Virus record (IMG/VR): IMGVR_UViG_3300012952_000048
Location: 1 to 36,437 of that record
Direction: 5' to 3' (one strand)
Length of the DNA stretch: 36,437 nucleotides
Source: a virus
Lineage: Duplodnaviria; Caudoviricetes
The first letter of the stretch is position 1. Each line of letters starts with the position of its first letter. The notes below the pieces were generated by a model. The model saw nothing but the letters and a program-made list of their open reading frames with translations. It searched no databases and had not been told where the DNA came from. Below are positions 2,284 to 36,437 of this stretch, piece by piece. Position numbers and translations under genes: made by a program.

Positions 2284-2311
2284 TTGACTCTAACGTATTA
2301 TGTGCTATCTT
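2284..2311 (+). promoter_or_regulatory. sigma70-like promoter with operator-like palindrome (ardC)
   Basis: TTGACT-16 bp-TATCTT; TAACGTATTATGTGCTA. Confidence 0.8.
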
Positions 2312-2347
2312 GTATGTGTAACCACAAAACACCAACGGAGAAACATC

Positions 2348-3259
2348 ATGGCTAAATCAAAACTGACATCAAAGCAAAAAGCAGACATCTTTTATCAGGG
2401 CATCACCGACGCTCTCGTCGACGCAATCGAAAACGGCGCGACTTCATGGGTCAAGTGCTGGAACGGCGCCGATCTTAGCGAAGTCCCTCACAATCCCGTC
2501 ACAGGCTCAACCTATAAAGGAATGAATACATTCTGGCTCTGGCTTATTGCTGGCGCTAAGGGCTACAGCGACAACCGCTGGGGAACCTTCAACAATATCC
2601 GCAAGCTTAACGGAAAAGGTGTCCGCAAAGGCGAGAAGGGAACCAAGGTCGCATTCTGGAAGCCCATCTTCAAAGAGAACGATGCTGGAGAGATGGAGCT
2701 TGTCACCTTCTACGTCAAGGAATGGACCGTCTTTAACTACGACCAAGCTGACGACATGCCCGAAGCGGACAAGTCCGAGCAGACGACTGGAGACCTCAAC
2801 GAGGTAGCGCAGGCATACCTTGACGGTGAGAAGATAGAGGTAACCTTCGGCGGGAATAGAGCATGCTACAGCCCCACAGGAGACTACATCAAGATGCCAC
2901 ACCAGAGCGCTTTCACCTCTGACGCTGAATTCACTTCTACTCTCTTCCATGAGATCGCTCACAGCACAGGACACAAGAGCCGCCTCAACCGTCTGGAAGA
3001 CGGCGCCTTCATGGGCTCCCACGCTTACTCTTTTGAAGAGCTTGTCGCCGAGTTCACCGCTGTTTTCATGTGCGCCCAGCTTGGCATCTTGGACCAGCAT
3101 GACGCGACATTCAAGAACAGCGCTGCTTATCTCCACTCTTGGAGCAAGCGCCTTAAGGAGAACCCTGACTGGGCTCCTCGCGCCGCTCAGAAGGCACAGA
3201 AAGCATGTGAGAGAATCCTCTCTCACTCCGCAGAGAAAGAGGAAGAGGTCGCCGCATAG
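2348..3259 (+). CDS. ardC: ArdC-like antirestriction / ssDNA-binding protein with zincin-like (MPTase) domain
   Basis: PHNPVTGSTYKGMN, WGTF..VRKGEKG, HEIAHSTGH..RLNR and YSFEELVAE motifs; start at ATG after AACGGAGA. Confidence 0.9.
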   Translation: MAKSKLTSKQKADIFYQGITDALVDAIENGATSWVKCWNGADLSEVPHNPVTGSTYKGMNTFWLWLIAGAKGYSDNRWGTFNNIRKLNGKGVRKGEKGTKVAFWKPIFKENDAGEMELVTFYVKEWTVFNYDQADDMPEADKSEQTTGDLNEVAQAYLDGEKIEVTFGGNRACYSPTGDYIKMPHQSAFTSDAEFTSTLFHEIAHSTGHKSRLNRLEDGAFMGSHAYSFEELVAEFTAVFMCAQLGILDQHDATFKNSAAYLHSWSKRLKENPDWAPRAAQKAQKACERILSHSAEKEEEVAA

Positions 3260-3290: not shown

Positions 3291-3343
3291 CGGTTTCTAT
3301 TCGATGCGCTGCTCGCCAATGCAAAAATAATCGATCTTTTTCC

Positions 3344-3371
3344 TTGACTATAATACAGAATGCGCTATTAT
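3344..3371 (+). promoter_or_regulatory. sigma70-like promoter with operator-like palindrome
   Basis: TTGACT-16 bp-TATTAT; TAATACAGAATGCGCTA. Confidence 0.75.
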
Positions 3372-3415
3372 TAAAGGGTAAGCAAAACAAAACAAAACAA
3401 AACGGAGTAACCAAA

Positions 3416-7999: not shown

Positions 8000-9004
8000 T
8001 TAAACCTCCATCCATAGAGTGTTTTCTGGTTTCAGATACCAAGCGACGATCCGCTCGATTGTGTCATCCAAGCTCTTCGGTTTCCAGCCCATATCTTCCA
8101 TCTTGGCGCCGCATAAGGCATATCGTAGGTCATGCCCTGATCTGCTGCTGTGGAAGTCTACAAGCTCATGTATGAGCGGCTTTCCAACCCTTTCGGAGAT
8201 CATCTCTGCGAGGCTGAGATTGTCAATCTCCTTGGCTCCGACGATGTTGAACTTGTCCCCCCTTTCCAAAGTCTCATATCGAGCCATGAGAAAGAGGACC
8301 GCATCTGCGACGCAGTTCGCGTCGATATAGAAGCGGCTTCCTGCCTTGGTACAGGTTGGATCGGCATGGACAAAGATCTTCTCTCCCTTGTCGATCTTCC
8401 TGATACAAAGAGGAACGTACTTCTCTGGGTGCTGCCTGTATCCGATGACGTTCATCGTGTGAGTTATGTTAATAGGCATCCTGTAAGTGTTAGCGTATGC
8501 GAGGCATAGCTCCTCTGCTCCTGCCTTGGAGGCGCTGTATGGGTTGCCGCTGTTATATCGGTCCCATTCTTTATAGTCGACACCTTCTGGAGCCGTCCCG
8601 AACACCTCGTCGGTCGAAAAGTACAGCAGCCATTCCAGCGCTGGACAATGGTCCTTAGCGTAGTTCAAAAGGTTGCAAGTCCCGACGACATTATCCATAA
8701 CGAATTCCATGGGGAACTGGATCGACCTGTCGACATGAGAACCAGCCGCGAGATGGAGGATATGCGTTATCTCTCCGATCTGAGCCCTCACCCTGTCATT
8801 AAGATCAGCTTTCAGATCATGGAAGACGATAGAAAGGCGCTTCCTATATTCTGGATTGTCCTCGACGATATGAGCGAGACGCTCAAGGCTTCCGCTTGTG
8901 TCCAGCCTGTCAAGGCTAACGACCTCGACGGTGGTCTTCCTCAATAAATGCTCTATGATATGGGATCCAATAAACCCCGCGCCACCTGTTACCAGAACTC
9001 TCAT
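8000..9004 (-). CDS. NAD-dependent epimerase/dehydratase (dTDP-glucose 4,6-dehydratase, RmlB-like)
   Basis: MRVLVTGGAGFIGSH, HLAAGSHVDRSI, STDEV, PYSASKA (YxxxK), GHDLRYA; start at TAATG overlap with GGAGGA RBS. Confidence 0.92.
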   Translation of the reverse strand: MRVLVTGGAGFIGSHIIEHLLRKTTVEVVSLDRLDTSGSLERLAHIVEDNPEYRKRLSIVFHDLKADLNDRVRAQIGEITHILHLAAGSHVDRSIQFPMEFVMDNVVGTCNLLNYAKDHCPALEWLLYFSTDEVFGTAPEGVDYKEWDRYNSGNPYSASKAGAEELCLAYANTYRMPINITHTMNVIGYRQHPEKYVPLCIRKIDKGEKIFVHADPTCTKAGSRFYIDANCVADAVLFLMARYETLERGDKFNIVGAKEIDNLSLAEMISERVGKPLIHELVDFHSSRSGHDLRYALCGAKMEDMGWKPKSLDDTIERIVAWYLKPENTLWMEV

Positions 9005-9573
9005 TAATCTCCTCCGTAAATATGAATTAAATTGGTGTCTATTGCTTTCCTGTAGGCTTTCCATACATCGACTTTCGTATATCTTAGACCAAGAGGGGAC
9101 CGTCTTAACTGCTGCCATGCAGCGCCCCAGTTCTCAAGAAAAAATGGATATCGAAGAACAGTAACAGGAATGTTTTCTCTCGCGACTACTGAAAAGAAGC
9201 TCGCATATCCCTGCTCGATAAAGCTTCTCATGCGCTCCGCATCATTTGAGCCTCTGCCCTTTATGTCGCCCCATTCGCTCCATATCAGAGCATCTTTTGA
9301 GAGCCTGCTCCCTATCACCTGATCCGTATCGCGAACGCATAGATAGACATGGGAAACATCGACCTTCTGGACGACCTTGTCCATCTCAAAAAAGAACCTC
9401 GGATTCTTTACGATAGGCGGAAGGTCTGAGCGACCCAGTTCTTCCGTCGTACATAGCTCAAATCCTGCGCTTACGCTCTCATTGAAGTAGCAAGGTGGAA
9501 CCTCACCCAGCTCGATCAAAAGACGCATCAGCGCCGACGTTCCGCTTCTTCCTGTCCCTGTAACTAATTCCAT
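9004..9573 (-). CDS. sulfotransferase-like protein
   Basis: N-terminal VTGTGRSGTS 5'-PSB-like loop; KNPR and CVRD...S motifs. Confidence 0.7.
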   Translation of the reverse strand: MELVTGTGRSGTSALMRLLIELGEVPPCYFNESVSAGFELCTTEELGRSDLPPIVKNPRFFFEMDKVVQKVDVSHVYLCVRDTDQVIGSRLSKDALIWSEWGDIKGRGSNDAERMRSFIEQGYASFFSVVARENIPVTVLRYPFFLENWGAAWQQLRRSPLGLRYTKVDVWKAYRKAIDTNLIHIYGGD

Positions 9574-13383: not shown

Positions 13384-13617
13384 ATGACCTCAACAACCGA
13401 ATTCATCCTTAACGCCCTCGTCGAAACCGCTTTTGATGGCGTACCTACTTGGGAAGTCTGCATCTCAAAGCAAGAACTTGATCTCGTAAAGGCTCACAGC
13501 CAGATCGGCGCTCTTGAGCGAATGGGAGCCGTCATCGAAGATATCACAGTCGTCCCGACCCATATCGAAGATGTCTTGATGGTGACCTTTTCCGTCGACC
13601 TCTGCTCTCCATTCTAA
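13384..13617 (+). CDS. small acidic hypothetical protein
   Basis: CAACGGAGA RBS; stop overlaps stop of convergent methyltransferase gene. Confidence 0.75.
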   Translation: MTSTTEFILNALVETAFDGVPTWEVCISKQELDLVKAHSQIGALERMGAVIEDITVVPTHIEDVLMVTFSVDLCSPF

Positions 13618-14225
13618 GGAGATATAGAGAGAACTCTCCTCATCTCTTCCAAGGGGGTGAGGAGGCTCTCTCGCTCACTTTCCCACCATTCCCAAGACAG
13701 GGAGGGGGGAAGAGCCTTGAGATTGCTTCCTGCGCGGTTTTGAGCCATCTCCTTCGGGACGATGACACCAAGACCGAACTCTTCATCCAAGAGAAAAAGC
13801 CTGTGTGTCCCGTTGTACTCTCCAAGCTCGGCGCATAGCCTGATCCAAGCCTTCCAGACATCTCCTGTCCAGTGATAGTCGGTTGGCTCCTTGGTGGTCC
13901 AAGATTCTTGTGTCGGGAAGCAGTCATCCAGAACGATGATCCCTCCCTCGTTGAGGCAGTTGAGAGAGTTGATCGTATCAAGATAAGCAGCATCAGCCTG
14001 ATGGAGACCGTCTACGAATACGAGATCAAAAGTCTTCTTGTTTCGCTTGAAGAACTGGTCGCTCTTGAGGAGAACCGTCGCCTCAGACATCGGATCGGGA
14101 TCGACTCCGACCTTGTCGTCGACCTCGACCCTGTTAAATGTCTTCCCCGTCTGAACTCCGATCTCAAGGTAGCTCTTCGCTTCAAACCTTCTCGCGAGTA
14201 GATTAAGCAATTCGTGACGGGTCAT
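13614..14225 (-). CDS. class I SAM-dependent methyltransferase (Methyltransf_24-like)
   Basis: SYLEIGVQTG, GVDP, FDLVFVDGLH, GGIIVLDD and WTGDVWK motifs. Confidence 0.88.
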   Translation of the reverse strand: MTRHELLNLLARRFEAKSYLEIGVQTGKTFNRVEVDDKVGVDPDPMSEATVLLKSDQFFKRNKKTFDLVFVDGLHQADAAYLDTINSLNCLNEGGIIVLDDCFPTQESWTTKEPTDYHWTGDVWKAWIRLCAELGEYNGTHRLFLLDEEFGLGVIVPKEMAQNRAGSNLKALPPSLSWEWWESERESLLTPLEEMRRVLSISP

Positions 14226-19292: not shown

Positions 19293-19394
19293 AATACAAT
19301 TCCCTATGCGTTAGCATATAGCATATCTGAAAAAGTGATCACTCATTGGTCAATATATAGCTGAGACTTTTTTTCGTCAAATGCAATTTTTCCC

Positions 19395-19422
19395 TTGACA
19401 ATAACACATTCTGTGATATCTT
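19395..19422 (+). promoter_or_regulatory. sigma70-like promoter with operator-like palindrome
   Basis: TTGACA-16 bp-TATCTT; TAACACATTCTGTGATA. Confidence 0.8.
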
Positions 19423-19446
19423 ATAAGTGTAACAACGGAGAAAAAA

Positions 19447-19944: not shown

Positions 19945-20265
19945 ATGGCAATCGAAAAATTCATCTTCAAGGCTGGAGAGAGTAGGGGAGTCGACGAGTC
20001 TGGAGCAGAGATCTGGGGCTCGACTGCGACCACCTGCGACCCTGACTGGGTAACCCTTCCTCATGCTTTAGGAGGAGGGAGAGCAAACGTGATTAGGTCG
20101 ACGCTTATGAATTGCCCCCATGGATGCCAGCAGAAGAGAACCGCTCTGGAGCTTGATAGGGTTTATCCTGTCGGAGACGGAGAGAAGAGCCTTGCTGTTA
20201 TCGAATGTCCAGTCCATGGATTCCTCTGGGTGGCTCATGTCTCGGCAAGGGGAAAGATGGAATGA
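19945..20265 (+). CDS. hypothetical Cys/His-rich protein
   Basis: CPHGC and CPVHG motifs; operon spacing. Confidence 0.7.
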   Translation: MAIEKFIFKAGESRGVDESGAEIWGSTATTCDPDWVTLPHALGGGRANVIRSTLMNCPHGCQQKRTALELDRVYPVGDGEKSLAVIECPVHGFLWVAHVSARGKME

Positions 20266-21428
20266 TCGAAGTCCTGACCGAGAAAGGCATCAGACATCTG
20301 GAGCAGATGGAAGAAGCCGATCACAGGATCACCATTTTCGACCTTGAGGGCTTTATAAAGCTACAGGTGAAGGGAGAGCCATCGAAGCACTGGGAGGTCA
20401 TAAGAGAAGCCGCACAGAGGGCATGGAGAGGAACTTCCAAGGGGAAGAGGAAGCTCCGATTCCTGTCCCTGTTCTCTGGTATTGAAGCGGCATCTGCCGC
20501 ATGGCATCCGCTGGGCTGGGAATGTGCAGCAGTAAGCGAGATCGATCCGTATGCTTGCGAGGTATTGTCGCGGCGCCTTCCAGACTCACCAAACCTCGGA
20601 GACATCACACAGATAAAAAGGGAGGATCTCGATGCAGTGGGTCCAATTGACGTTATCGTGGGGGGATCCCCATGCCAGTCCTTCTCGGTCACAGGACTCC
20701 GAAAAGGTCTCCAAGACCACAGAGGATCTCTCATGTTCCACTATATACGAGTCATTGACATCGTTCGTCCTCGGTGGTTCGTCTGGGAAAATGTACAAGG
20801 TGCGCTCTCCTCCGATAAAGGGCGAGCCTTTGGAACCCTCATCGGGTCGCTGGGAGAATTCGGGTATGCTATGGGGTGGAGAGTGCTGGACGCTAAAAGC
20901 TTCGGTGTGCCTCAATCGAGAAAGAGAGTCTTCCTTGTCGGAACTACTACAGGACCATCGAAAGCTCACTCCGTCTTATTTGGGTCGAACCTTAGCCGCT
21001 GGAATGCTCAAGAGGATACCAAACAGACCAAAAGTCAAGCCGATACTCCTCCAAGCTCTGGAGACAGCCAGAGACAACGATCAACCCTTTGCATGGTCAT
21101 CAACGGAAGCGGACACCCAAGACTACAGGGAGGCTCTGGCGATTGCGCTTGCTGCCTGCTGGCGACACGCGGATCGTCCATGAGGAACTGGATTATCCAC
21201 CTAAGCGGAGGAGACCACGAAGACGCTCGCGTCGACTGCGTCCGACGGCTTTCTTCGGTCGAGATGGAAAGGATACAAGGCTTCCCTGACGGTTGGACAG
21301 ATATTGAATGGAAAGGCTCAGGGTCGAAAGACATTCGTCGACAATTCGCTCTGGGTAACTCGATGGCTGTTCCTGTGGTGCGCTGGCTTGGAGAAGGTAT
21401 CCAAGCGGCGATCTGTTGGCGCGGATAA
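20262..21428 (+). CDS. DNA (cytosine-5)-methyltransferase
   Basis: Motif I SLFSGI, IV GSPCQSFS, VI ENV, VIII QSRKRVF, IX RRLSSVEMERIQGFP, X GNSMAV. Confidence 0.93.
   Translation: MIEVLTEKGIRHLEQMEEADHRITIFDLEGFIKLQVKGEPSKHWEVIREAAQRAWRGTSKGKRKLRFLSLFSGIEAASAAWHPLGWECAAVSEIDPYACEVLSRRLPDSPNLGDITQIKREDLDAVGPIDVIVGGSPCQSFSVTGLRKGLQDHRGSLMFHYIRVIDIVRPRWFVWENVQGALSSDKGRAFGTLIGSLGEFGYAMGWRVLDAKSFGVPQSRKRVFLVGTTTGPSKAHSVLFGSNLSRWNAQEDTKQTKSQADTPPSSGDSQRQRSTLCMVINGSGHPRLQGGSGDCACCLLATRGSSMRNWIIHLSGGDHEDARVDCVRRLSSVEMERIQGFPDGWTDIEWKGSGSKDIRRQFALGNSMAVPVVRWLGEGIQAAICWRG
20632..21183 (+). CDS. overlapping alternative-frame ORF inside the C5-methyltransferase (EcoHK31I beta-like)
   Basis: GGAGG 6 nt before ATG; 183 aa open; SSGRWENSGM..GECWTL..SSLSELL pattern. 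Confidence 0.6.
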   Translation: MQWVQLTLSWGDPHASPSRSQDSEKVSKTTEDLSCSTIYESLTSFVLGGSSGKMYKVRSPPIKGEPLEPSSGRWENSGMLWGGECWTLKASVCLNRERESSLSELLQDHRKLTPSYLGRTLAAGMLKRIPNRPKVKPILLQALETARDNDQPFAWSSTEADTQDYREALAIALAACWRHADRP

Positions 21429-25939: not shown

Positions 25940-25965
25940 TGTTCTTCTCCGTTGGTTACACTTAC

Positions 25966-25993
25966 ATAGTATCACACTGTGCGTTAGTGTCAA
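25966..25993 (-). promoter_or_regulatory. sigma70-like promoter with operator-like palindrome
   Basis: Minus strand TTGACA-16 bp-TACTAT; TAACGCACAGTGTGATA. Confidence 0.85.
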
Positions 25994-26029
25994 GGAAAAA
26001 GATAGACTTTTTTTAATCGACCCACTGCT

Positions 26030-26548
26030 CTACAATTTGCCAACCTCGTCGCCGATCATCGTCCAGCCTTCTCTCTGTTTCGATCTGCTGAACATATAGA
26101 GATAATCCCCGACAGAGCGCGCCTCGACAAGGTCATAGAATGCCTCTGGCTTCTGGGAGTGCTTTCGCTTCTGAGCCTTGATAACGCTTGAGATCGAATT
26201 GACTGGACGCTTGAGAGCGGCGCCTCTTCCCCTCGTTCCGAAAAGGCAAAGCTCATGCTGTCCCCGAAAATAGTAGCCGAGACCGAAAGAAGGCTTGATC
26301 CAGCAAAGGTTCGTTATGTAACGGAAGCCCAGCGCATCGAATACGCGGAGACCGTCGGCAAGAAAATTGTTCGTCACCCAAAGATAGAAGTGAAGGTCTT
26401 CGCCTAGCTTAACTGTGTCCAGCCAGTCCCCCATGAGGTCGATCCCGTCGTCTGTTTTCAATAGCCGATAATGACGATCCGCTCCTCGCTTGATCCTTCC
26501 TCCGCCTTTCTCGTTCCATGGCGGATCTGCCACTATAGTCCTGATCAC
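26030..26548 (-). CDS. MT-A70 family adenine methyltransferase
   Basis: IVADPPW, YLWVTN, WIK..FGLGYYFRGQHE and HSQKP motifs. Confidence 0.9.
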   Translation of the reverse strand: MIRTIVADPPWNEKGGGRIKRGADRHYRLLKTDDGIDLMGDWLDTVKLGEDLHFYLWVTNNFLADGLRVFDALGFRYITNLCWIKPSFGLGYYFRGQHELCLFGTRGRGAALKRPVNSISSVIKAQKRKHSQKPEAFYDLVEARSVGDYLYMFSRSKQREGWTMIGDEVGKL

Positions 26549-26551
26549 CAA

Positions 26552-29239: not shown

Positions 29240-29378
29240 AACGTAAATTTGGACGGAAAAAATTCGCGGGGTAGGGGCAGAGGAGAAAGGGCTTTCTTCT
29301 AAAACGGCGCCCGAGGGGGGGGTAAACCTCCCCGAATTGGAGAGCCCCTCTCTGGTTGCAAAAAAATAATCTTTTTTG

Positions 29379-29406
29379 TTGACACTATCGCACTCTGTGT
29401 TATTAT
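29379..29406 (+). promoter_or_regulatory. sigma70-like promoter with operator-like palindrome
   Basis: TTGACA-16 bp-TATTAT; TATCGCACTCTGTGTTA. Confidence 0.85.
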
Positions 29407-29440
29407 GTAGTTGTAAGACAACCAACCAAGGAGAACCACA

Positions 29441-29968
29441 ATGGACCGTCTCGTAATCACAACCGACTCAAAAGGGCAGAAGATAGCTGTCCTCTTCGAC
29501 CTCTCTAAAAGCTGGGGAGAAGTTAAGGCGAACAGCGCTGACCAAATGCAGACCAAGCTCTTCAGCGATCTTCTCTTCGCTCAGCTTAAAGACGCAACCG
29601 ACAGCAAGGGCAACAGGGCGACCGCTGATGATATCAGCGAAGCTATGCGCTTGGAATGGGACAGCCTCAACACCGAACGCAAGGGAAGCGGAAAGGGCTG
29701 GGCTGTCAAGCTTGGCGACCACTTGCTCCACCACCGCACAAAGGGAACCATGTTCATGCAGGGTGTCGCTCTCGACACTCTCGTTATCGAAGCTGTAGAG
29801 TCGGCGCCTAAGAAGGTCCGAGGCTCCCGCAATGGCGTAACCCTTGCGCGTAAAGCTGTCCGCTCTCTTCTTCCTGTGGCTCTCTGGAAGATGGTCAACC
29901 TGACAGACGCGCAGATCTTCAGCGGCGCCGAAGCTGTGGAAAAGTGGAACGAGCTTCAAGGCGCATAG
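29441..29968 (+). CDS. hypothetical protein
   Basis: CCAAGGAGA RBS; biased codons. Confidence 0.8.
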   Translation: MDRLVITTDSKGQKIAVLFDLSKSWGEVKANSADQMQTKLFSDLLFAQLKDATDSKGNRATADDISEAMRLEWDSLNTERKGSGKGWAVKLGDHLLHHRTKGTMFMQGVALDTLVIEAVESAPKKVRGSRNGVTLARKAVRSLLPVALWKMVNLTDAQIFSGAEAVEKWNELQGA

Positions 29969-30073
29969 CCTTGCTCGGTCTTCTTATGACTTGCCCCCAT
30001 GACCTACCCCCCCATGGTAGGCATGGGGAGCCTATGAACCAATCAATCACCAACAAAACCAAACGGAGAAGAT

Positions 30074-30472
30074 ATGAGGATACCGCAATCAGACAGGCAT
30101 GAGATGGAAGAACAGATCTCAAAGCTTGAATCAATACGAGAACAGATGGAGACTGCTGTCGCCGACCTTATCCTTGAGATGAAGGACAGCGGGAACGCTA
30201 CCACCATCCTCACCCTTGAGGAGCAATGGAACGACACCAGAGCCAAGCTCATGGGTCTCGCTCAGGCAGCGCAGGACAAAGCTCAGGAGAGCTATGATGA
30301 GAAGCAAGACGACCGAGTCGAAAGCATGATCGACAGTATCGAGGACTTTAAGTCGGAGATCGATGCGGAGGAATGGGGCATAACACTCGACGACATCGAC
30401 GACGCTATCGACGCAGCGGTAAGCTATCCAGACGTTCCAGAGATGCCCTGCCTGTCTTCGGATCAGTACTGA
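30074..30472 (+). CDS. acidic coiled-coil hypothetical protein
   Basis: AAACGGAGA RBS. Confidence 0.8.
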   Translation: MRIPQSDRHEMEEQISKLESIREQMETAVADLILEMKDSGNATTILTLEEQWNDTRAKLMGLAQAAQDKAQESYDEKQDDRVESMIDSIEDFKSEIDAEEWGITLDDIDDAIDAAVSYPDVPEMPCLSSDQY

Positions 30473-30562
30473 CGGACGAGGTATGCGCTCGGTGTTCCAT
30501 GTGGAACACTGTAGCGCAGTACGTCGAACAGGAATTAAAATAATCTTTTTTGATCTTTCTCC

Positions 30563-30590
30563 TTGCGGCTAACGCATAGTGTGCTATTAT
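30563..30590 (+). promoter_or_regulatory. sigma70-like promoter with operator-like palindrome
   Basis: TTGCGG-16 bp-TATTAT; TAACGCATAGTGTGCTA. Confidence 0.75.
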
Positions 30591-30626
30591 ATAAGTGTAA
30601 GACAAACCAACCCAACGGAGAAAACA

Positions 30627-30848
30627 ATGATTTACCCAGTAGGAACCGAACTCATCAGCACCGACACCGACAGCAAGGGCAACAAGACCAAGACGCTCTG
30701 GAGAGTTGTGAAGGTCGAAGGAAACGTCATGACGATGGAAACTCTTCGCTGGAGCGGCAGTTATAACCAAGCTTGGAACGGTGGCGGCATCTCATACACC
30801 GAGACCCGCGAAGTCGTCATCAACGAGAACAACGAGACAGTGGAGTAA
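30627..30848 (+). CDS. small beta-rich hypothetical protein
   Basis: ATG after CAACGGAGA; 73 aa. Confidence 0.8.
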   Translation: MIYPVGTELISTDTDSKGNKTKTLWRVVKVEGNVMTMETLRWSGSYNQAWNGGGISYTETREVVINENNETVE

Positions 30849-30851
30849 ATC

Positions 30852-31040
30852 ATGACCTACATTATCGACCCAGACTTCCAGTCCGAGTATCTTCTCGGAC
30901 CCTCCATCCTCCTCCGAGTCGACTCCCGACTCGTTCGCGGTGGATACGTCTACACCTACGCGCCTATCGACATGGATGGAAGACCCATCATGCGCGAGGC
31001 ATTTGAGGACTCATTCGGCGAGGTGATCCCCCGAAAATAA
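30852..31040 (+). CDS. hypothetical protein
   Basis: GGAG RBS; 3 nt after upstream stop. Confidence 0.65.
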   Translation: MTYIIDPDFQSEYLLGPSILLRVDSRLVRGGYVYTYAPIDMDGRPIMREAFEDSFGEVIPRK

Positions 31041-31054
31041 AATAATCTTTTTCC

Positions 31055-31082
31055 TTGCATGTATCGCATAGTGTGATACAAT
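31055..31082 (+). promoter_or_regulatory. sigma70-like promoter with operator-like palindrome
   Basis: TTGCAT-16 bp-TACAAT; TATCGCATAGTGTGATA. Confidence 0.8.
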
Positions 31083-31123
31083 GTAAATGTAAGACAAACC
31101 ACTAACCACAATCGGAGATCAAG

Positions 31124-31297
31124 ATGTTCCCAGAAATGAATCCAGCGCTCGCCGCTCGCGAAGCCCTCCTCCTCGCCGCTGACGAAGCAGCAGAGAACCG
31201 AGAGGACAAAGCTCCTCTTCCTCAAGCTGTGATCGTGGATGAGCAGAAGGCTGAAGCCGCAGCCGCGCTCTTCGCTCTTCTTGAGCTTCCCTTCTAA
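31124..31297 (+). CDS. 57-aa Ala-rich protein ending ...LLELPF
   Basis: CGGAGA RBS after promoter; below ORF-track cutoff. Confidence 0.75.
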   Translation: MFPEMNPALAAREALLLAADEAAENREDKAPLPQAVIVDEQKAEAAAALFALLELPF

Positions 31298-31492
31298 GGG
31301 GAAGAGACTCCTCTCTCCCCGATGGGGGAGGGTGGATCTTTATCAGGTATCCTCATCTGTGTAGTGTGCTAAGTCAATCCTTGACGCATCCGCTGCCGTC
31401 GCTCAGTGCTGAAGTAATGAGGAAAGCGACATTTATATTCGATGGACTGCGCTCTAATGTCCGAATAAATAAAGGTTTTTTCAAAATACTCC

Positions 31493-31520
31493 TTGCATAT
31501 ATCGCATTATGTGGTATTAT
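31493..31520 (+). promoter_or_regulatory. sigma70-like promoter with operator-like palindrome
   Basis: TTGCAT-16 bp-TATTAT; TATCGCATTATGTGGTA. Confidence 0.8.
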
Positions 31521-31551
31521 ATAAGTGTAAGCAAAAACAAACGGAGTTAAA

Positions 31552-31878
31552 ATGTTCAACCTCATCGACACCAACCTGACCGCAACCCAAATCATCGACA
31601 ACAACACCATATTGAGCGAAGCACTCTTCGCAATGAACCAAGAGGGCGACGACTGCCTTGAGATGGTTCAAGACTACATCATCAAGAGCCTCGGTCTGGA
31701 AGACACCCAGAGCATCCGCGACCAGATCTCTTATGAGCTTGTCGAAGTAGCTGGCGAGTCTTTTGAGTACGAGACCGCTGAAGAGCGCGACGAACACATG
31801 GACGAGATCGCTTACGAGCTTCGCTCGGAAGACGCTTGGTATGCTACCGCTCGCGAGTTCAACCGCTGGAACGCATAA
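31552..31878 (+). CDS. highly acidic 108-aa protein
   Basis: AAACGGAG RBS; monocistronic unit. Confidence 0.85.
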   Translation: MFNLIDTNLTATQIIDNNTILSEALFAMNQEGDDCLEMVQDYIIKSLGLEDTQSIRDQISYELVEVAGESFEYETAEERDEHMDEIAYELRSEDAWYATAREFNRWNA

Positions 31879-31884
31879 AGCGCC

Positions 31885-31907
31885 AAGCCCTTCGGGGCTT
31901 TTTTTTT
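31885..31907 (+). terminator. intrinsic terminator
   Basis: AAGCCC-TTCG-GGGCTT plus T tract. Confidence 0.9.
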
Positions 31908-31937
31908 GTTTTTTTTCGATTATTTTGTCGATTTCTC

Positions 31938-31965
31938 TTTACACTATCTCATTATATGTTATAAT
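31938..31965 (+). promoter_or_regulatory. sigma70-like promoter with operator-like palindrome
   Basis: TTTACA-16 bp-TATAAT; TATCTCATTATATGTTA. Confidence 0.8.
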
Positions 31966-31994
31966 AAGAACATAACCAACAACGGAGAACCATC

Positions 31995-32282
31995 ATGAAA
32001 AACCTTATCAGCCTCAACTCAAACAAATACATGGTCGTAATCATTCACGTTAACGACGTAGTCGAGAAAATCATCAATGTTCCGCATTATGATGCTGCTC
32101 AGCAATGGGTCTCAAAGGTTCGCAAATGCTCCCCGAAGATGATCGTCGTCCTCGACGAAGACGGAAACGACGAAACCCACATCTCTCGCGAAAGCGCCGA
32201 AGATCGCGGCGGCTTCATGTTCGGCGGAGGAAAGGCTTTCATGAGATGCGACGAGTCCGGTCGTACTTGGTGGACGAGCTAA
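31995..32282 (+). CDS. hypothetical protein
   Basis: CAACGGAGA RBS; monocistronic unit. Confidence 0.8.
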   Translation: MKNLISLNSNKYMVVIIHVNDVVEKIINVPHYDAAQQWVSKVRKCSPKMIVVLDEDGNDETHISRESAEDRGGFMFGGGKAFMRCDESGRTWWTS

Positions 32283-32289
32283 AGACCTC

Positions 32290-32312
32290 AAGCCCTTCGG
32301 GGCTTTTTTTTT
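32290..32312 (+). terminator. intrinsic terminator
   Basis: AAGCCC-TTCG-GGGCTT plus T tract, identical core to 31885. Confidence 0.9.
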
Positions 32313-32332
32313 GGCTTATTTTAATTTAGTTC

Positions 32333-32361
32333 TTGACTATTAACGCATTGTGCGCTATTAT
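32333..32361 (+). promoter_or_regulatory. sigma70-like promoter with operator-like palindrome
   Basis: TTGACT-17 bp-TATTAT; TAACGCATTGTGCGCTA. Confidence 0.85.
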
Positions 32362-32386
32362 ATAATTGTAAGCAACGGAGCAACCA

Positions 32387-32566
32387 ATGAAAAAATTCTT
32401 CCTCATCGACACCCAAGACGAAAACACAAGATTTTTCATTCGCGCCACCGTCAAGGTCGCCAACCAGACTATTCGCGACCTCCACGCTCAAGGCATCAAA
32501 GCCAATCTCCGAAGCTGCAAGAAAGCAAGCCAGAAGAGAGAAGCTCGCGAAGCACTCGCCGCCTAA
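32387..32566 (+). CDS. 59-aa basic protein ending ...REALAA
   Basis: CAACGGAG RBS; below ORF-track cutoff. Confidence 0.75.
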   Translation: MKKFFLIDTQDENTRFFIRATVKVANQTIRDLHAQGIKANLRSCKKASQKREAREALAA

Positions 32567-32629
32567 TCAACGTCCGCGCCGACGAGAGCGGCGCTTAACA
32601 TAACACAATCACAGGAGAGGATAGAGAAC

Positions 32630-33112
32630 ATGTCATTAGAGGAATACTGCGCTCAGCGCCTTACGAGAGCCATCTATGGGCTCGCCGAGGAGATGACTGA
32701 GTATATCATATTGCTGGAGAAGGCTGAGCCTCCGCCATGGATGAAGAACGATCAAGGCGCTTGCAGGGTAGCCGCAGAACTGCCGCTCGGCATGCCTCTC
32801 AAGGCTGCCGTCGTTAGGTCTACATCATGGGGGGAGGAGCGGTCCTTCCTTAGCGTCAGAGCCGCTCCTGACCGCTTCGTCGAGGTCGACATCCTGACGT
32901 ATCACAATCGGCTAACCTGCTTCGGCTCTCATAGCGGAGATGCCATTCTTGAGGAGAACTATGGGCGCCGCCGATGGCTCAAGGTCGCGAAGTTCGCAGA
33001 AGGCGCCGTCGTCGACATATTGATCGACCGCGATAACGGGATTGAGGATCCAGAGTATAATGGAGAAGACGAAGCCGAGGAGGAAAGCTTTCCCCTCTTG
33101 GAGGACCAATGA
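32630..33112 (+). CDS. hypothetical protein, acidic tail
   Basis: Purine-rich RBS; 160 aa. Confidence 0.7.
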   Translation: MSLEEYCAQRLTRAIYGLAEEMTEYIILLEKAEPPPWMKNDQGACRVAAELPLGMPLKAAVVRSTSWGEERSFLSVRAAPDRFVEVDILTYHNRLTCFGSHSGDAILEENYGRRRWLKVAKFAEGAVVDILIDRDNGIEDPEYNGEDEAEEESFPLLEDQ

Positions 33113-33321
33113 CACCCGCGCCAACAATCAAAGACAAGGTCGAGATCGAGACCGCGAGACTGGAGATCATGGTCCAGTACCTCTCGGACAAGGAGCTTCG
33201 CAGACTGATCAGAGCCAACCTCCGCAAGAGCAACCACAGAGACGCTCTCACGCGAGGACACGCGAGGCTCTCTGTGAGCATAGCCACCAAGGAACTCGGC
33301 GACAGGCGCCGAGCCTGCTGA
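33109..33321 (+). CDS. small basic hypothetical protein
   Basis: GGAGG RBS; ATGA overlap. Confidence 0.65.
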   Translation: MTPAPTIKDKVEIETARLEIMVQYLSDKELRRLIRANLRKSNHRDALTRGHARLSVSIATKELGDRRRAC

Positions 33322-33324
33322 GGC

Positions 33325-33621
33325 TTAGGGAAGCATCCCGAACCTTCGACCGCTGCGGCTATGGACCAGACCTTCGCCAAGGTGACGAAAGAAGTGATGA
33401 AGATCTCCATTCATGAAGTCGATCTTCCGAATGATGTTCTCAATCTGCTCTCTCTCTGTTCCGCTGGTGCGAGAGATGGTCTCAATGACTACGCCAGTAT
33501 CGACGAGGTGAAGGTTTCCGTCCTGATCGGTGATCTCCATAGTGCGAGAGTCAAGGTTCTTCTCAGAGAAGAAGCGACCGAGGAAAGATTCGCTGTGAAA
33601 GAATTTAGAAAAGTTGTTCAT
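33325..33621 (-). CDS. hypothetical protein (FFSEKNL...IRKIDFMNGDLHHFFRHL)
   Basis: CAACGGAGA RBS after operator-bearing promoter. Confidence 0.8.
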   Translation of the reverse strand: MNNFSKFFHSESFLGRFFSEKNLDSRTMEITDQDGNLHLVDTGVVIETISRTSGTEREQIENIIRKIDFMNGDLHHFFRHLGEGLVHSRSGRRFGMLP

Positions 33622-33646
33622 GATGATCTCCGTTGGTTATGTATGT

Positions 33647-33674
33647 ATATTAACGCACTGTGTATTAGTGTCAA
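33647..33674 (-). promoter_or_regulatory. sigma70-like promoter with operator-like palindrome
   Basis: Minus strand TTGACA-16 bp-TAATAT; TAATACACAGTGCGTTA. Confidence 0.8.
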
Positions 33675-33694
33675 GGAGATAATGGAAAAAGATC

Positions 33695-33724
33695 AAAAAA
33701 AAATCCCCCGCCGAAGCGAGGGGC
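33695..33724 (-). terminator. intrinsic terminator
   Basis: Minus strand CCCCTCGC-TTCG-GCGGGGG(A) followed by T tract. Confidence 0.85.
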
Positions 33725-33732
33725 TGGAATCT

Positions 33733-34035
33733 CTAATCGAGTCTATACTGTGCGGCGCGGCTCGCGAAGATTGCGAAGATCGCTGAGCGGATGGTTCGCG
33801 GCACGCGAGGGGGGCAGCTTGCGGGGCGGTGCGCTCGGAGGAACTTGCGGAACTCGATGTCGCCTCCTTTTCTCGCGAGGTGCGCGAGAGGAGCGAACGA
33901 GGAAACGAGGTCGTTAGCGTTGAGCCCTCGGTCAGCGGCGAAAGCGCGGACGGTGTTGACTGCGAAGTCGTTAAGCTCTACGAGGTCGGCTGCGGTTGCG
34001 GTTGCGATGATTGCTGGGGTTCTCATGGTTTTCAT
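33733..34035 (-). CDS. Ala/Arg-rich hypothetical protein
   Basis: ATG after CAACGGAGA; 100 aa; followed by terminator. Confidence 0.75.
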   Translation of the reverse strand: MKTMRTPAIIATATAADLVELNDFAVNTVRAFAADRGLNANDLVSSFAPLAHLARKGGDIEFRKFLRAHRPASCPPRVPRTIRSAIFAIFASRAAQYRLD

Positions 34036-34081
34036 TTTAGGTCTCCGTTGGTCTTGAAAGGGAAAGGGTATCATCCAGAAG

Positions 34082-34128
34082 AGCAGGTCTTATCGGCGCC
34101 TTCCAGAATGTCCCGCGCCCTTGCCTCA
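34082..34128 (-). repeat. 5' leader motif copy C (GAGGCAAGGGCG...AAGGCGCCGATAAGACCTGC)
   Basis: Homologous to 34929-34974 and 36318-36364; each lies right after a promoter. Confidence 0.75.
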
Positions 34129-34133
34129 TTTAT

Positions 34134-34161
34134 ATAGTATCACATAATGGGTTATAGTCAA
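34134..34161 (-). promoter_or_regulatory. sigma70-like promoter with operator-like palindrome
   Basis: Minus strand TTGACT-16 bp-TACTAT; TAACCCATTATGTGATA. Confidence 0.8.
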
Positions 34162-34189
34162 GAGAAAAGATCAAAAAGATTAAATTAAA

Positions 34190-34974
34190 ATGTAAAGAGT
34201 CGAGATCGGCGGGTTCGGGGTGATCAATCCCTCCCCCGCTTCTCTCTTGGTCGGTGTTCCCTTTATTGATATGGTAACGATCCGAGGCAGTTACCGTCCG
34301 CTTTCCTCGGCGCTTTTGCAAGATGTAGATTTAAAATAGGCGCGTTGGTGCGCCACCCCTCAAGCTTTATAGGAGCCTGACCACTGGGCTCCTTTTAAGG
34401 TAGGACCGTAACCTCCCGCGTATATTCTCCGAGATGGGTTTCGTGGACGGTTTCCTTTTCATTACGTTTTATGCCTGCCCCAGTAGCCGTAGCTTGAAGG
34501 AATCGAACCTCCCACGCAGGTCTGCAAAATAAAGTGTGACCGACAAACTAAATCATATATTAAAATCTCCACTCGCTGCCGTATTGGGCTTAACCCTTGG
34601 CGGCACTCAAGAGGCTCTGTGCCTCGGTGTACCTTGGCAGTGAGTGAACCTTTGCAAGAGAGGCGGGACTTGAACCCCCTCAGCGAGACTCGGAGAGTGT
34701 AAGCGAGAGGGACAGGATAATGACTCCCTGTCCCCTGCTCGCTTCAAGATGATCGGGGGTCGTTTTCATTCGGCAGGCTGGGGCAGCAAACGACACTAAG
34801 CATTAGCTTATTCATTAAATAAGCGACACGCGCTATCTTACTTCCGTCTCAAAGTACGGGGCGGCACCGAATCCGATCATCTCGGAAAATGTATATTAAA
34901 ATCAGGAGCATGTCTCTTCTCCTTGGTTAGCAGGTCTTAGCGGCGACTTCGTTTCCTCCCTCGCCCTTGCCTCA
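34190..34974 (-). ncRNA. candidate ~780-nt structured non-coding RNA (copy A)
   Basis: Own promoter; no convincing ORF; many helices, pseudoknots and two T-loop modules; 5' domain homologous to 36183-36364. Confidence 0.65.
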
Positions 34975-34979
34975 ATTAC

Positions 34980-35008
34980 AATATGACACATTATGCGTTA
35001 CCTGTCAA
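34980..35008 (-). promoter_or_regulatory. promoter with operator-like palindrome driving ncRNA A
   Basis: Minus strand TTGACA-17 bp-CATATT; TAACGCATAATGTGTCA; TGTCATATTGTAATTGAG shared with promoter at 36398. Confidence 0.7.
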
Positions 35009-35074
35009 ATAAATAATGCAAAATAAAATACTTTTTTTTGTAAACGCTGTCCTGCTCTGCAATAAATAATGAAT

Positions 35075-35460
35075 TAAAATGAGGAGAGAGACCCGATCCG
35101 CCGACCAGATCTCTCTCCCTGTTGAACCCGCTCGCTTCCACATCGCGCAAAGGCGGGAGGGAATCGAACCCCCAGCAAGTCGGATCTCCGTTAGCGCTGG
35201 TGACACTTGGCGGAGAACTTAGAAGAGAGCGACAGCCGCTTAGCCTTATACTCGCTCTCCTTAGTCGTCAGGTTTACCAGACCATCAGACCATTCCAGCC
35301 GAGAGACGATCTCAGCCGAAACCAATAGAACAACAGTTCGCAGTCTATAAGGAAGACCAGCCCCCAGCATTATGCAGCTTGGACGCTCCGTATCGTGGAT
35401 TGAACGGCAGCATTAAGCAGCTTGCGCGCATCGGCTCTGAAGAGAGCCAGCATTCTCCAA
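35075..35460 (-). ncRNA. structured 3' non-coding segment with short direct repeats, T-loop module and terminal hairpin
   Basis: CAAGCTGCWTAATGCTG repeats; GGGGG-TTCGATT-CCCTC; terminal 16-bp hairpin followed by CATTTTAATT. Confidence 0.5.
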
Positions 35461-35468
35461 GAGACCCC

Positions 35469-35684
35469 CTATCGAAGGGGCATCTCTCGGACTTGGACGA
35501 AGTCCACGCCGAAGCGGACATCCTCAAGGATGAGGACGAGGTCTCCTCGGTCGACGACTCGGTCGACGGTCTCTTCTTTCAAGACCGAGCGAGCGAAAGC
35601 GAGTGCTTCGGACTTGTCCGCGAAAGCCGCAAGGACGGAAGAGCCTTCGCAGCGCTCTCCCTGTGAAACGATAAAGATGGACAT
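35469..35684 (-). CDS. hypothetical protein
   Basis: CCAACCAACGGAGA RBS; 71 aa. Confidence 0.75.
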   Translation of the reverse strand: MSIFIVSQGERCEGSSVLAAFADKSEALAFARSVLKEETVDRVVDRGDLVLILEDVRFGVDFVQVREMPLR

Positions 35685-35837
35685 TCGGTCTCCGTTGGTT
35701 GGATTGGTTGAAGGTTAAAAGGTTAGAATGGTATTAGTAAGCCGCTCCATTCTGGCGCTCGTTGGTCTCCTGCTGGAGCATCATCAACGATTTAGACTCT
35801 TTGCTCCGCGCCGTTGTCTGTGGCGCGCCTCGATCAG

Positions 35838-35873
35838 TTACTCGCCGAGGGTTCTCAGTCGGTGGATACACAT
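35838..35873 (-). CDS. 11-aa mini-ORF MCIHRLRTLGE (leader peptide candidate)
   Basis: Full CCAACAACGGAGA RBS of the type used by the real genes. Confidence 0.4.
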   Translation of the reverse strand: MCIHRLRTLGE

Positions 35874-35894
35874 GGTTCTCTCCGTTGTTGGTGG

Positions 35895-36364
35895 GTTAAT
35901 GGCTGCATCGGTTCGGGTCTGGCGGGAAAAGGATGAGCTTGGGACATGAGTCGGCATAGCCGATCTGCTGGTTCTCTTCAGAGCCTTTGATACTGTGGGT
36001 CACCCGATGCAGCGATTAAAGCGTTCATAACGTATTCTCTCAAGTCAAATTTGATATCCATTGTCTTCGCGACGGACCATAACCCGTCATCGTCACTCAT
36101 CGGACGATCCCTCGGGGTTTATGACTTAAGCCTTAGTCGGCGAGAGAACACGATATCAACGCTCTAATATCGCGAAGGGTGAGAGTCATCGGCAGTCTGA
36201 GCAACTCGTTTCTCAGGATTGGGGCTTGAAGCCCGACACGCTTTCTTTGAGTCTATCGTCTGTTAGACGGTGCGGCACCGATTCATCTCAAGGGGTATTT
36301 CTCTTCCCCTCTTAGTTGGCAGCTCTTATCAGGGACTTTCCAGTTGGTCTCTCCCCTCGGCTCA
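35895..36364 (-). ncRNA. candidate structured non-coding RNA / long 5' leader (copy B)
   Basis: No ORF; 10-11-bp helices; 5' domain homologous to copy A with compensatory changes. Confidence 0.65.
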
Positions 36365-36369
36365 ATTAC

Positions 36370-36398
36370 AATATGACATGATAACGCATAATGCGCAA
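36370..36398 (-). promoter_or_regulatory. promoter with operator-like palindrome over -35, driving ncRNA B
   Basis: Minus strand TTGCGC-17 bp-CATATT; TTGCGCATTATGCGTTA at 36398-36382. Confidence 0.65.
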
Positions 36399-36437
36399 GT
36401 AAATAATTCAAAATAAGTTATCTTTTTTTGCTAATCG

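Follow-up and report, generated by a model that had tools for sequence, protein, structure and literature searches.

The window analyzed in this study (the whole stretch of 36,437 nucleotides) represents about half of a tailed phage genome (52% complete), in which the terminase, portal, and capsid genes lie on the minus strand. The best-matching terminases of cultured phages are less than 30% identical to that of the window, and the compared sequencing runs holding the window are marine or seawater metagenomes, or coded organisms, with no RNA run among those listed. From 29360 to the window end, a row of promoter-like sites with a common 17-bp near-palindrome is found, most of which are followed by short open reading frames (ORFs) and terminators. 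Many small ORFs, as well as an ArdC-like anti-restriction gene, have similar promoter boxes in front of them. The operator-like near-palindrome lies between or over the hexamers of many promoter-like sites (29360-36437, 2041-2307, 3333-3375, 19388-19429, and 25946-26003), and the same promoter type is present in a relative, L178. Genes for an ArdC-like anti-restriction protein, a nucleotide-sugar epimerase, and three DNA methyltransferase-like proteins were noted at 2300-3259 (+), 8000-9118 (-), 13614-14225, 20205-21428, and 26030-26551, some of them within the head-gene block. Another contig, L166, overlaps the last 123 bases of the window and extends past them; its positions 1-1824 contain three ORFs of 130-150 aa without Pfam hits, located upstream of promoter B described below.

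Two units on the minus strand, A and B, consist of a promoter-like site, two leader hairpins (H1 and H2), and a larger folded core. Promoter-like site A (34980..35008; TTGACA, 17 nt, CATATT, with TG upstream; 10/12 matches) carries the 17-bp near-palindrome in its spacer and would start transcription at 34973. It is followed by H1 (34930..34973), which has a lower stem AGG/CCU, an asymmetric internal loop with UAAGA at its end, and an upper stem GGCG/CGCC, and by H2 (34904..34923), a 5-bp stem with a 10-nt purine-rich loop, whose letter 34909 is altered towards the B loop in three other strains (X3, X5, and X8). Promoter-like site B (36370..36398; TTGCGC, 17 nt, CATATT; putative start at 36363) has a weaker -35 element, falls under the scan threshold, and has its 3' end in common with promoter A. 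Behind it lie H1 (36319..36363; lower stem AGC/GCU, upper stem GGGA/UCCC) and H2 (36291..36310). A third site, C (34134..34161; TTGACT, 16 nt, TACTAT), precedes a further H1 copy (34083..34127) that lacks H2 and core and lies ahead of a 100-aa ORF with unassigned function (33733..34035, minus strand), of which one other homologue is found (87% identity). H1 begins 7 nt after the -10-like hexamer, and its lower stem in B (AGC/GCU) is compensatory to that in A and C. Stability of the leaders is unremarkable (z 0.6 to -1.3). Judging from these motifs, transcription probably starts at the promoter-like sites. Leader B could also form 13 bp with a terminator arm, which is probably a chance product of purine and pyrimidine runs; this pairing is not kept in strain X5, since at locus B the X5 contig has a match to the beginning of leader A instead.

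The original prediction described two paralogous, covarying, pseudoknotted RNA domains built of eight ordered elements, and all eight were found on the minus strand in the claimed order. Paralogy is well supported: core A aligned to core B with a score of 46, which none of 2000 shuffles reached (17.4 +/- 2.8, maximum 35), and the two leaders scored 51, compared with a maximum of 39 among 1000 shuffles. Likewise, the 15-mer TCGGTGCCGCMCCGT occurs twice in the window (chance mean 0.02; 0/100 shuffles reached 2). No third copy of the core is present within the window. Both domains exist, but each continues further 3' than proposed and is closed by an outer stem, and the GAGATGA element, although present, is largely one strand of this outer stem. 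In addition, what had been taken as a single domain of about 200 nt is better divided into a common promoter-leader part and a separable core that is missing in close strains, whereas the proposal of a structured RNA that is maintained through compensatory change and has no Rfam 15 entry holds.

Core A spans 140 nt in its predicted fold (34745..34884, minus strand) and contains a 12-bp outer stem P0 (34884-34873/34756-34745), an inner stem P1 (34872-34865/34775-34768), hairpin a (34859-34844), the motif GCGUGUC (34831-34825), hairpin b (34824-34806), a weak hairpin c (34801-34777), and a pseudoknot (34794-34788/34765-34759). It is followed by a 17-bp hairpin (34701..34744, minus strand; -26 kcal/mol) that is lost along with core A and has no counterpart in B. 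Core B spans 111 nt (36180..36290, minus strand) and has the same helix order, with a 5-bp P0 (36290-36286/36184-36180), P1 (36282-36276/36194-36188), hairpin a (36269-36257), GCGUGUC (36241-36235), hairpin b (36234-36222), hairpin c (36216-36197), and a pseudoknot (36207-36202/36188-36183) that has 1-2 nt in common with P1 and the outer stem. P1 has 8 bp in A and 7 bp in B, A gaining one pair on both sides, and two G-U pairs lie beside the junction. In both copies, the pseudoknot pairs loop c with the linker behind P1. The fold is thus predicted to be a pseudoknotted four-way junction.

Structure is kept while sequence changes in some of these elements only. Hairpin b, which had been noted as a hairpin of unrelated sequence at the same place, displays true covariation (1/5 letters common per strand), and the pseudoknot and leader stems also differ in sequence between the copies; in H2, the predicted compensatory change (AGGAG/CTCCT versus AGGGG/CCCCT) proved to be one A-U pair of A that is G-C in B. 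In contrast, the supposed covariation of hairpin a (CCGT/ACGG versus CGTCT/AGACG) does not stand, being plain identity: the two copies are almost the same in sequence but are read in a shifted register, with 11/12 stem letters identical and only the 3-nt loop different. Conserved letters are located not in exposed loops but in P1, in hairpin a, and at the junction; those identical at the junction comprise CCGC, GCGUGUC, AAU, and the two adjoining G-U pairs, whereas the loops differ. A CGC/GCG pairing across the junction was considered and dropped, with a probability of only 0.02 and 0.1.

Energy calculations treat the two copies differently. The nested part of core B is approximately its predicted best fold, most pairs having probabilities of 0.8-1.0. 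In the ensemble of core A, P0 is firm and P1 reaches 0.47, while hairpin c, perfect in B, has two mismatches and is absent (pair probability about 0); the common nested model (-32.1) therefore costs about 11 kcal/mol relative to the best fold (-43.5). The A segment delimited by strain indels is strongly folded on the minus strand (z -6.5; 0/100 shuffles), compared with -4.25 on the plus strand and -5.1 for the lowest of 112 background windows, and the corresponding B segment is weaker (z -1.6; 5/100 shuffles). Blind 150-nt windows over both cores are unremarkable (z -0.9 and -1.6). Support for the pseudoknot, whose pairing does differ in sequence between the copies as predicted, is modest: loop shuffling gave P 0.024 (A) and 0.027 (B), and comparison with random genome segments gave 0.003 and 0.048, both tests having been made after the pairing had been seen. 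Separately, 34890-34878 can form a 13-bp helix with 34436-34424 (minus strand), an alternative partner for the P0 5' strand 450 nt downstream, and a 7-nt deletion is listed beside it at 34422 in X5.

Strain variation was compared in 7 of the 24 listed runs, of which X7 covered neither core and X12 gave nothing. Core A together with its 3' hairpin is skipped by a single X2 contig (194 nt, with 176 letters on the short side), and contigs from X3 and X8 skip 186 nt that include both as well, with just 21 letters on the short side, where the compared stretch ended. X2 and X3 belong to one study and X8 to another. Core A is present in X5 and, over 34802-35036, in X6. At locus B, one X5 contig skips 221 nt and has 109 other letters instead (short side 37), the main X2 allele is without core B, its loose ends joining a variant H2 straight to 36179, and core B is present in X6 at depth 2. 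Absence of the core takes two or more junction forms at locus A and was seen a single time at locus B. The joints lie right at the closing stems of the cores, where repeats of 2-5 nt are found; since hairpin-promoted slippage between short repeats is a known deletion route (PMC4134008), this coincidence fits slippage and is by itself no proof of a designed module. Presence of the core would be the ancestral state, given the collinear order of promoter, H1, H2, and core in both copies.

Alleles of the core provide a further comparison. The 186-nt core A segment of X5 differs from the window at four positions. Two of them form a double change from U-A to C-G in hairpin b (the chance of two of four sites being partners is 0.021), one changes a G-C pair of the 17-bp 3' hairpin to G-U, and the fourth turns G-C into G-A and breaks the end pair of the pseudoknot. 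Paired changes can also arise from template switching at DNA hairpins. Substitutions in X5 are no rarer in the core than in its flanks (4/186 versus 41/1490, P 0.81).

The surroundings of the cores offer little with which they could be coupled. Over its roughly 800 nt, transcript A contains no ATG-started frame longer than 31 aa; about 300 nt separate core B from the first ORF behind it that has a ribosome-binding motif, and the terminator-like sites nearest to the cores are at least 400 nt off; no ORF, ribosome site, or terminator overlaps either core. The sequences downstream of core A and core B are unrelated, implying that the core is tied to no single context. Transcript B would end at a terminator-like hairpin of 17 pairs (35082..35119, minus strand). 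Counts of 7-8 bp helices in both transcripts are within the range of shuffles and genome background. Transcript A has two long-range helices of at least 12 bp (3/300 shuffles), one of which is P0, and the long helices of transcript B have a value of 14/300 shuffles.

Several other RNA elements were observed in the two transcripts. Two T-loop-like hairpins lie downstream of core A (34676-34666 and 34509-34499, within 34499..34676, minus strand) and a third in transcript B (35170-35160, minus strand), all three without a tRNA body; none was found in the complete relative G002, and ARAGORN detected no tRNA or tmRNA genes in the window. These hairpins might be processing signals or tRNA decoys. 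In transcript B, a long G-U-rich stem (36168-36141 with 36042-36015, minus strand, within 36179-36010; z -6.0, with borders chosen by hand) encloses a 90-nt domain, which an X2 contig replaces with a short hairpin within the same closing stem. The 90-nt domain contains a hammerhead-like CCGAUGAG...GAA; a hammerhead at 36130-36041 was rejected, as stems I and III do not form on inspection (z -0.7). An optional 126-nt segment follows (36015-35890, minus strand; 10-bp closing stem, z -2.7), in place of which X2 and X5 have 11 nt. Within it, 20 nt are complementary to 35452-35433, a region with several indels in X5, and the two stretches may represent an antisense pair or an inverted duplication. 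Other strain indels in this region also fall inside closing stems.

Searches of catalogued families and sequence collections were largely negative. In agreement with the statement that no known RNA was recognized, neither copy has an Rfam 15 match even at E 10; no match in the window reaches the gathering score, and 33000-36437 gave four weak matches, none on the cores. The core was searched for in viral contigs, cultured phages, plasmids, and five terminase relatives, and metagenome and genome collections were scanned with the leader. The first viral scan returned 119 loci from 45 of 64 parts, of which 102 had none and 17 had one of five context features; the second returned 24 loci, none with the 3' half; and the third and fourth returned one and three loci, all unrelated. 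Thus, no distant core homologue was found in the viral collections scanned (four scans, one incomplete). BLAST against cultured phages and plasmids yielded short chance matches alone, and the five terminase relatives (67-75% identity; most are fragments and only G002 is complete) contain neither leader nor core. A literature search with motif strings gave nothing relevant among the matches listed, and six motif strings had no hits in three supplements of PMC10690425; this catalogue and PMC5737381 may already hold the motif.

Leader searches in viral contigs returned zero and four loci. In metagenomes, 15 loci were obtained, comprising three from the window itself, one from its overlapping continuation L166, and 11 that represent seven distinct outside sequences; the genome collection gave one locus, within a coding stretch. 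The variable lower-stem pair is kept in 7/8 outside matches (P 0.035). These matches were nevertheless not accepted as homologues, being near chance and of mixed, often coding, context. A sequence in L163 (about 1400-1449) folds exactly like H1 and lies just upstream of a gene whose product presumably resembles a type IV prepilin at its start. This sequence could be a chance likeness or belong to a wider H1 family; weaker H1 look-alikes are present in L161, L174, and L175.

Taken together, the locus is a duplicated phage cassette that, as read from its sequence, comprises a promoter-like site, a two-hairpin 5' leader, and an optional core of 110-140 nt. The paralogy, the modular layout, the absence of the core in close strains, and one compensatory double change between alleles are direct observations, the "family" consisting of two paralogues plus one sequenced allele. 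The core very probably is, or recently was, a selected RNA structure, and we regard it as a real, optional, and uncatalogued structured RNA module of one phage lineage. The whole unit may have been duplicated long ago to give copies A and B, and the core, likely transcribed early from the promoter-like site, may then have been lost repeatedly through slippage involving the short repeats located at the base of its closing stem. Acting in trans, this folded RNA would work on its own and bind a host factor, rather than switching a neighboring gene.

Such an accessory, trans-acting RNA, working as a decoy for a host factor, is our tentative first choice among the possible functions. It was placed first because the same promoter class also precedes small accessory genes, including the ArdC-like one, and because the core is patchy among strains, patchy presence being typical of host-interaction cargo. 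Several results count against this binder: the low z of B (-1.6), the unremarkable blind windows, the hairpin c mismatches and the cost of about 11 kcal/mol in A, the broken pseudoknot pair in X5, the lack of substitution depletion, the possibility of template switching, and the short side of just 21 letters in X3 and X8. A self-cleaving ribozyme of an undescribed class, cutting long early transcripts into leader and downstream RNA modules, is rather unlikely but was placed close behind, as the common letters crowd the junction. Indeed, the location of the conserved letters is explained by a catalytic or ligand pocket at least as well as by a protein decoy. The compact pseudoknotted fold has the size of a ribozyme, identical letters cluster at the junction and adjoining G-U pairs while loops differ, and the two divergent copies lie in non-coding phage DNA upstream of T-loop modules. 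To our knowledge, however, few orphan phage motifs have turned out to be ribozymes; the core has no match to an Rfam ribozyme, twister-P1 included, at E 10, A and B have different internal loops between the two outer stems, the place of twister cleavage, and hairpin c is degraded in A. On the other side, ribozymes near phage genes and the processing of polycistronic transcripts are discussed in PMC6765202, and theta ribozymes adjoin phage tRNAs (PMC10879173). The bolder version, in which the core would be the first member of a new self-cleaving class, carried as an exchangeable cartridge behind a standard promoter-leader with presence/absence polymorphism in marine phages, is unlikely.

It is also conceivable, although quite unlikely, that larger ornate RNAs of about 800 and 1300 nt carry the core as a plug-in domain at their periphery, resembling GOLLD and ROOL, phage RNAs whose linkers vary (bioRxiv 10.1101/2024.12.08.627333). 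Almost no ORFs are present in transcript A, which has T-loop hairpins as well as two helices of at least 12 bp, one an alternative P0 partner about 450 nt downstream, and the other strain indels also lie inside closing stems. One larger RNA is nevertheless disfavored because the A and B contexts are unrelated and whole-transcript pairing is near background apart from a slight excess of very long helices: 7-8 bp helix counts show no enrichment, one long helix of A is P0, transcript B reaches just 14/300, and no GOLLD or ROOL match was found. A decaying relic or DNA-level hairpin element whose RNA function is gone appears improbable. It would account for the two or more junction forms of loss at locus A and the loss at locus B, the lack of substitution depletion, the broken pseudoknot pair, the weak fold of B, the strong score of the A plus strand, and the lack of a homologue among five records of related phages, which are mostly fragments; yet five helices and the pseudoknot persist although hairpin-b and pseudoknot sequences are unrelated, and both the G-U pairs and the change from G-C to G-U agree with the minus strand, the strand of the promoter-like sites. 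Cis action on transcription or stability seems quite improbable; in this reading, H1 and H2 would serve as a put-like antiterminator or 5' stabilizer, and the core would modulate or sense a ligand. H1 and H2 occupy the first 70 nt or so behind the promoter, similar to HK022 putL, which has two stem-loops of about 70 nt just behind PL (PMC9378689). Three transcripts, one of them an mRNA, begin with H1, and leader B can pair with the terminator arm; for the leader alone, such a role is plausible. However, the core overlaps no ORF, ribosome site, or terminator, X5 does not keep the terminator pairing, and no put match is among the Rfam hits. A riboswitch is unlikely for the same uncoupling from genes, given the lack of a frame above 31 aa in transcript A and the distance of about 300 nt to the ORF behind core B.

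Orphan structured RNAs of phages are already known as a kind, and this core is one without an Rfam family. Its value lies in the natural controls at hand, i.e., two copies that have diverged, one allele carrying a compensatory change, and near-identical strains that lack the core, and both cores are short enough for a one-day test of self-cleavage and folding. If it cleaves itself, it would represent a new ribozyme class, and if a binding partner is found, an RNA-based host-interaction strategy. The layout suggests that phages can swap RNA cargo behind one promoter-leader, as they do small accessory genes.

Comparison with known systems places the core apart from each of them. The defining arrangement of a riboswitch, in which a terminator or ribosome site upstream of a gene overlaps with the aptamer, is absent. 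Group I introns have a terminal G, and group II introns have GUGYG...AY ends; an intron of either group was rejected because the B joint has no register with a final G or an initial GUGYG and the A and B joints differ at the 3' side. Twister RNAs of the T1 layout consist of an outer stem, an internal loop, and an inner stem closing a multi-way junction, with the last hairpin loop paired with the 3' linker. The core resembles this layout in outline (PMC8495972) but is about twice its size, has no match to twister-P1 (RF03160; 0 at E 10), and lacks the U-A cleavage dinucleotide beside P1, the 5' side of the loop being empty in A and UGA in B; of the two pseudoknots of twister, one is supported here (P about 0.025 per copy), and a putative second one would have 2 bp. 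Compared to HDV-like and theta ribozymes (PMC8495972, PMC10879173), copy A can be drawn as a nested P1/P2/P3 knot and has a phage setting near tRNA-like elements; however, P4, P1.1, the catalytic C before the last P2 strand, and the G-U at the start of P1 are missing, and copy B cannot be drawn so. The leader is like HK022 put, an RNA that binds RNA polymerase and suppresses termination, in layout only (PMC9378689), with two stem-loops in the first 70 nt or so and more than one copy, but has no sequence match, and its third copy has the first hairpin only. Finally, the core differs from GOLLD and ROOL in its size of 110-140 nt, its duplication in unrelated contexts, the lack of an Rfam match, and the absence of dense pairing over 600-800 nt, whereas it is like them in being a non-coding phage RNA with a pseudoknot, tRNA-like neighbors, and variable inserts (bioRxiv 10.1101/2024.12.08.627333).
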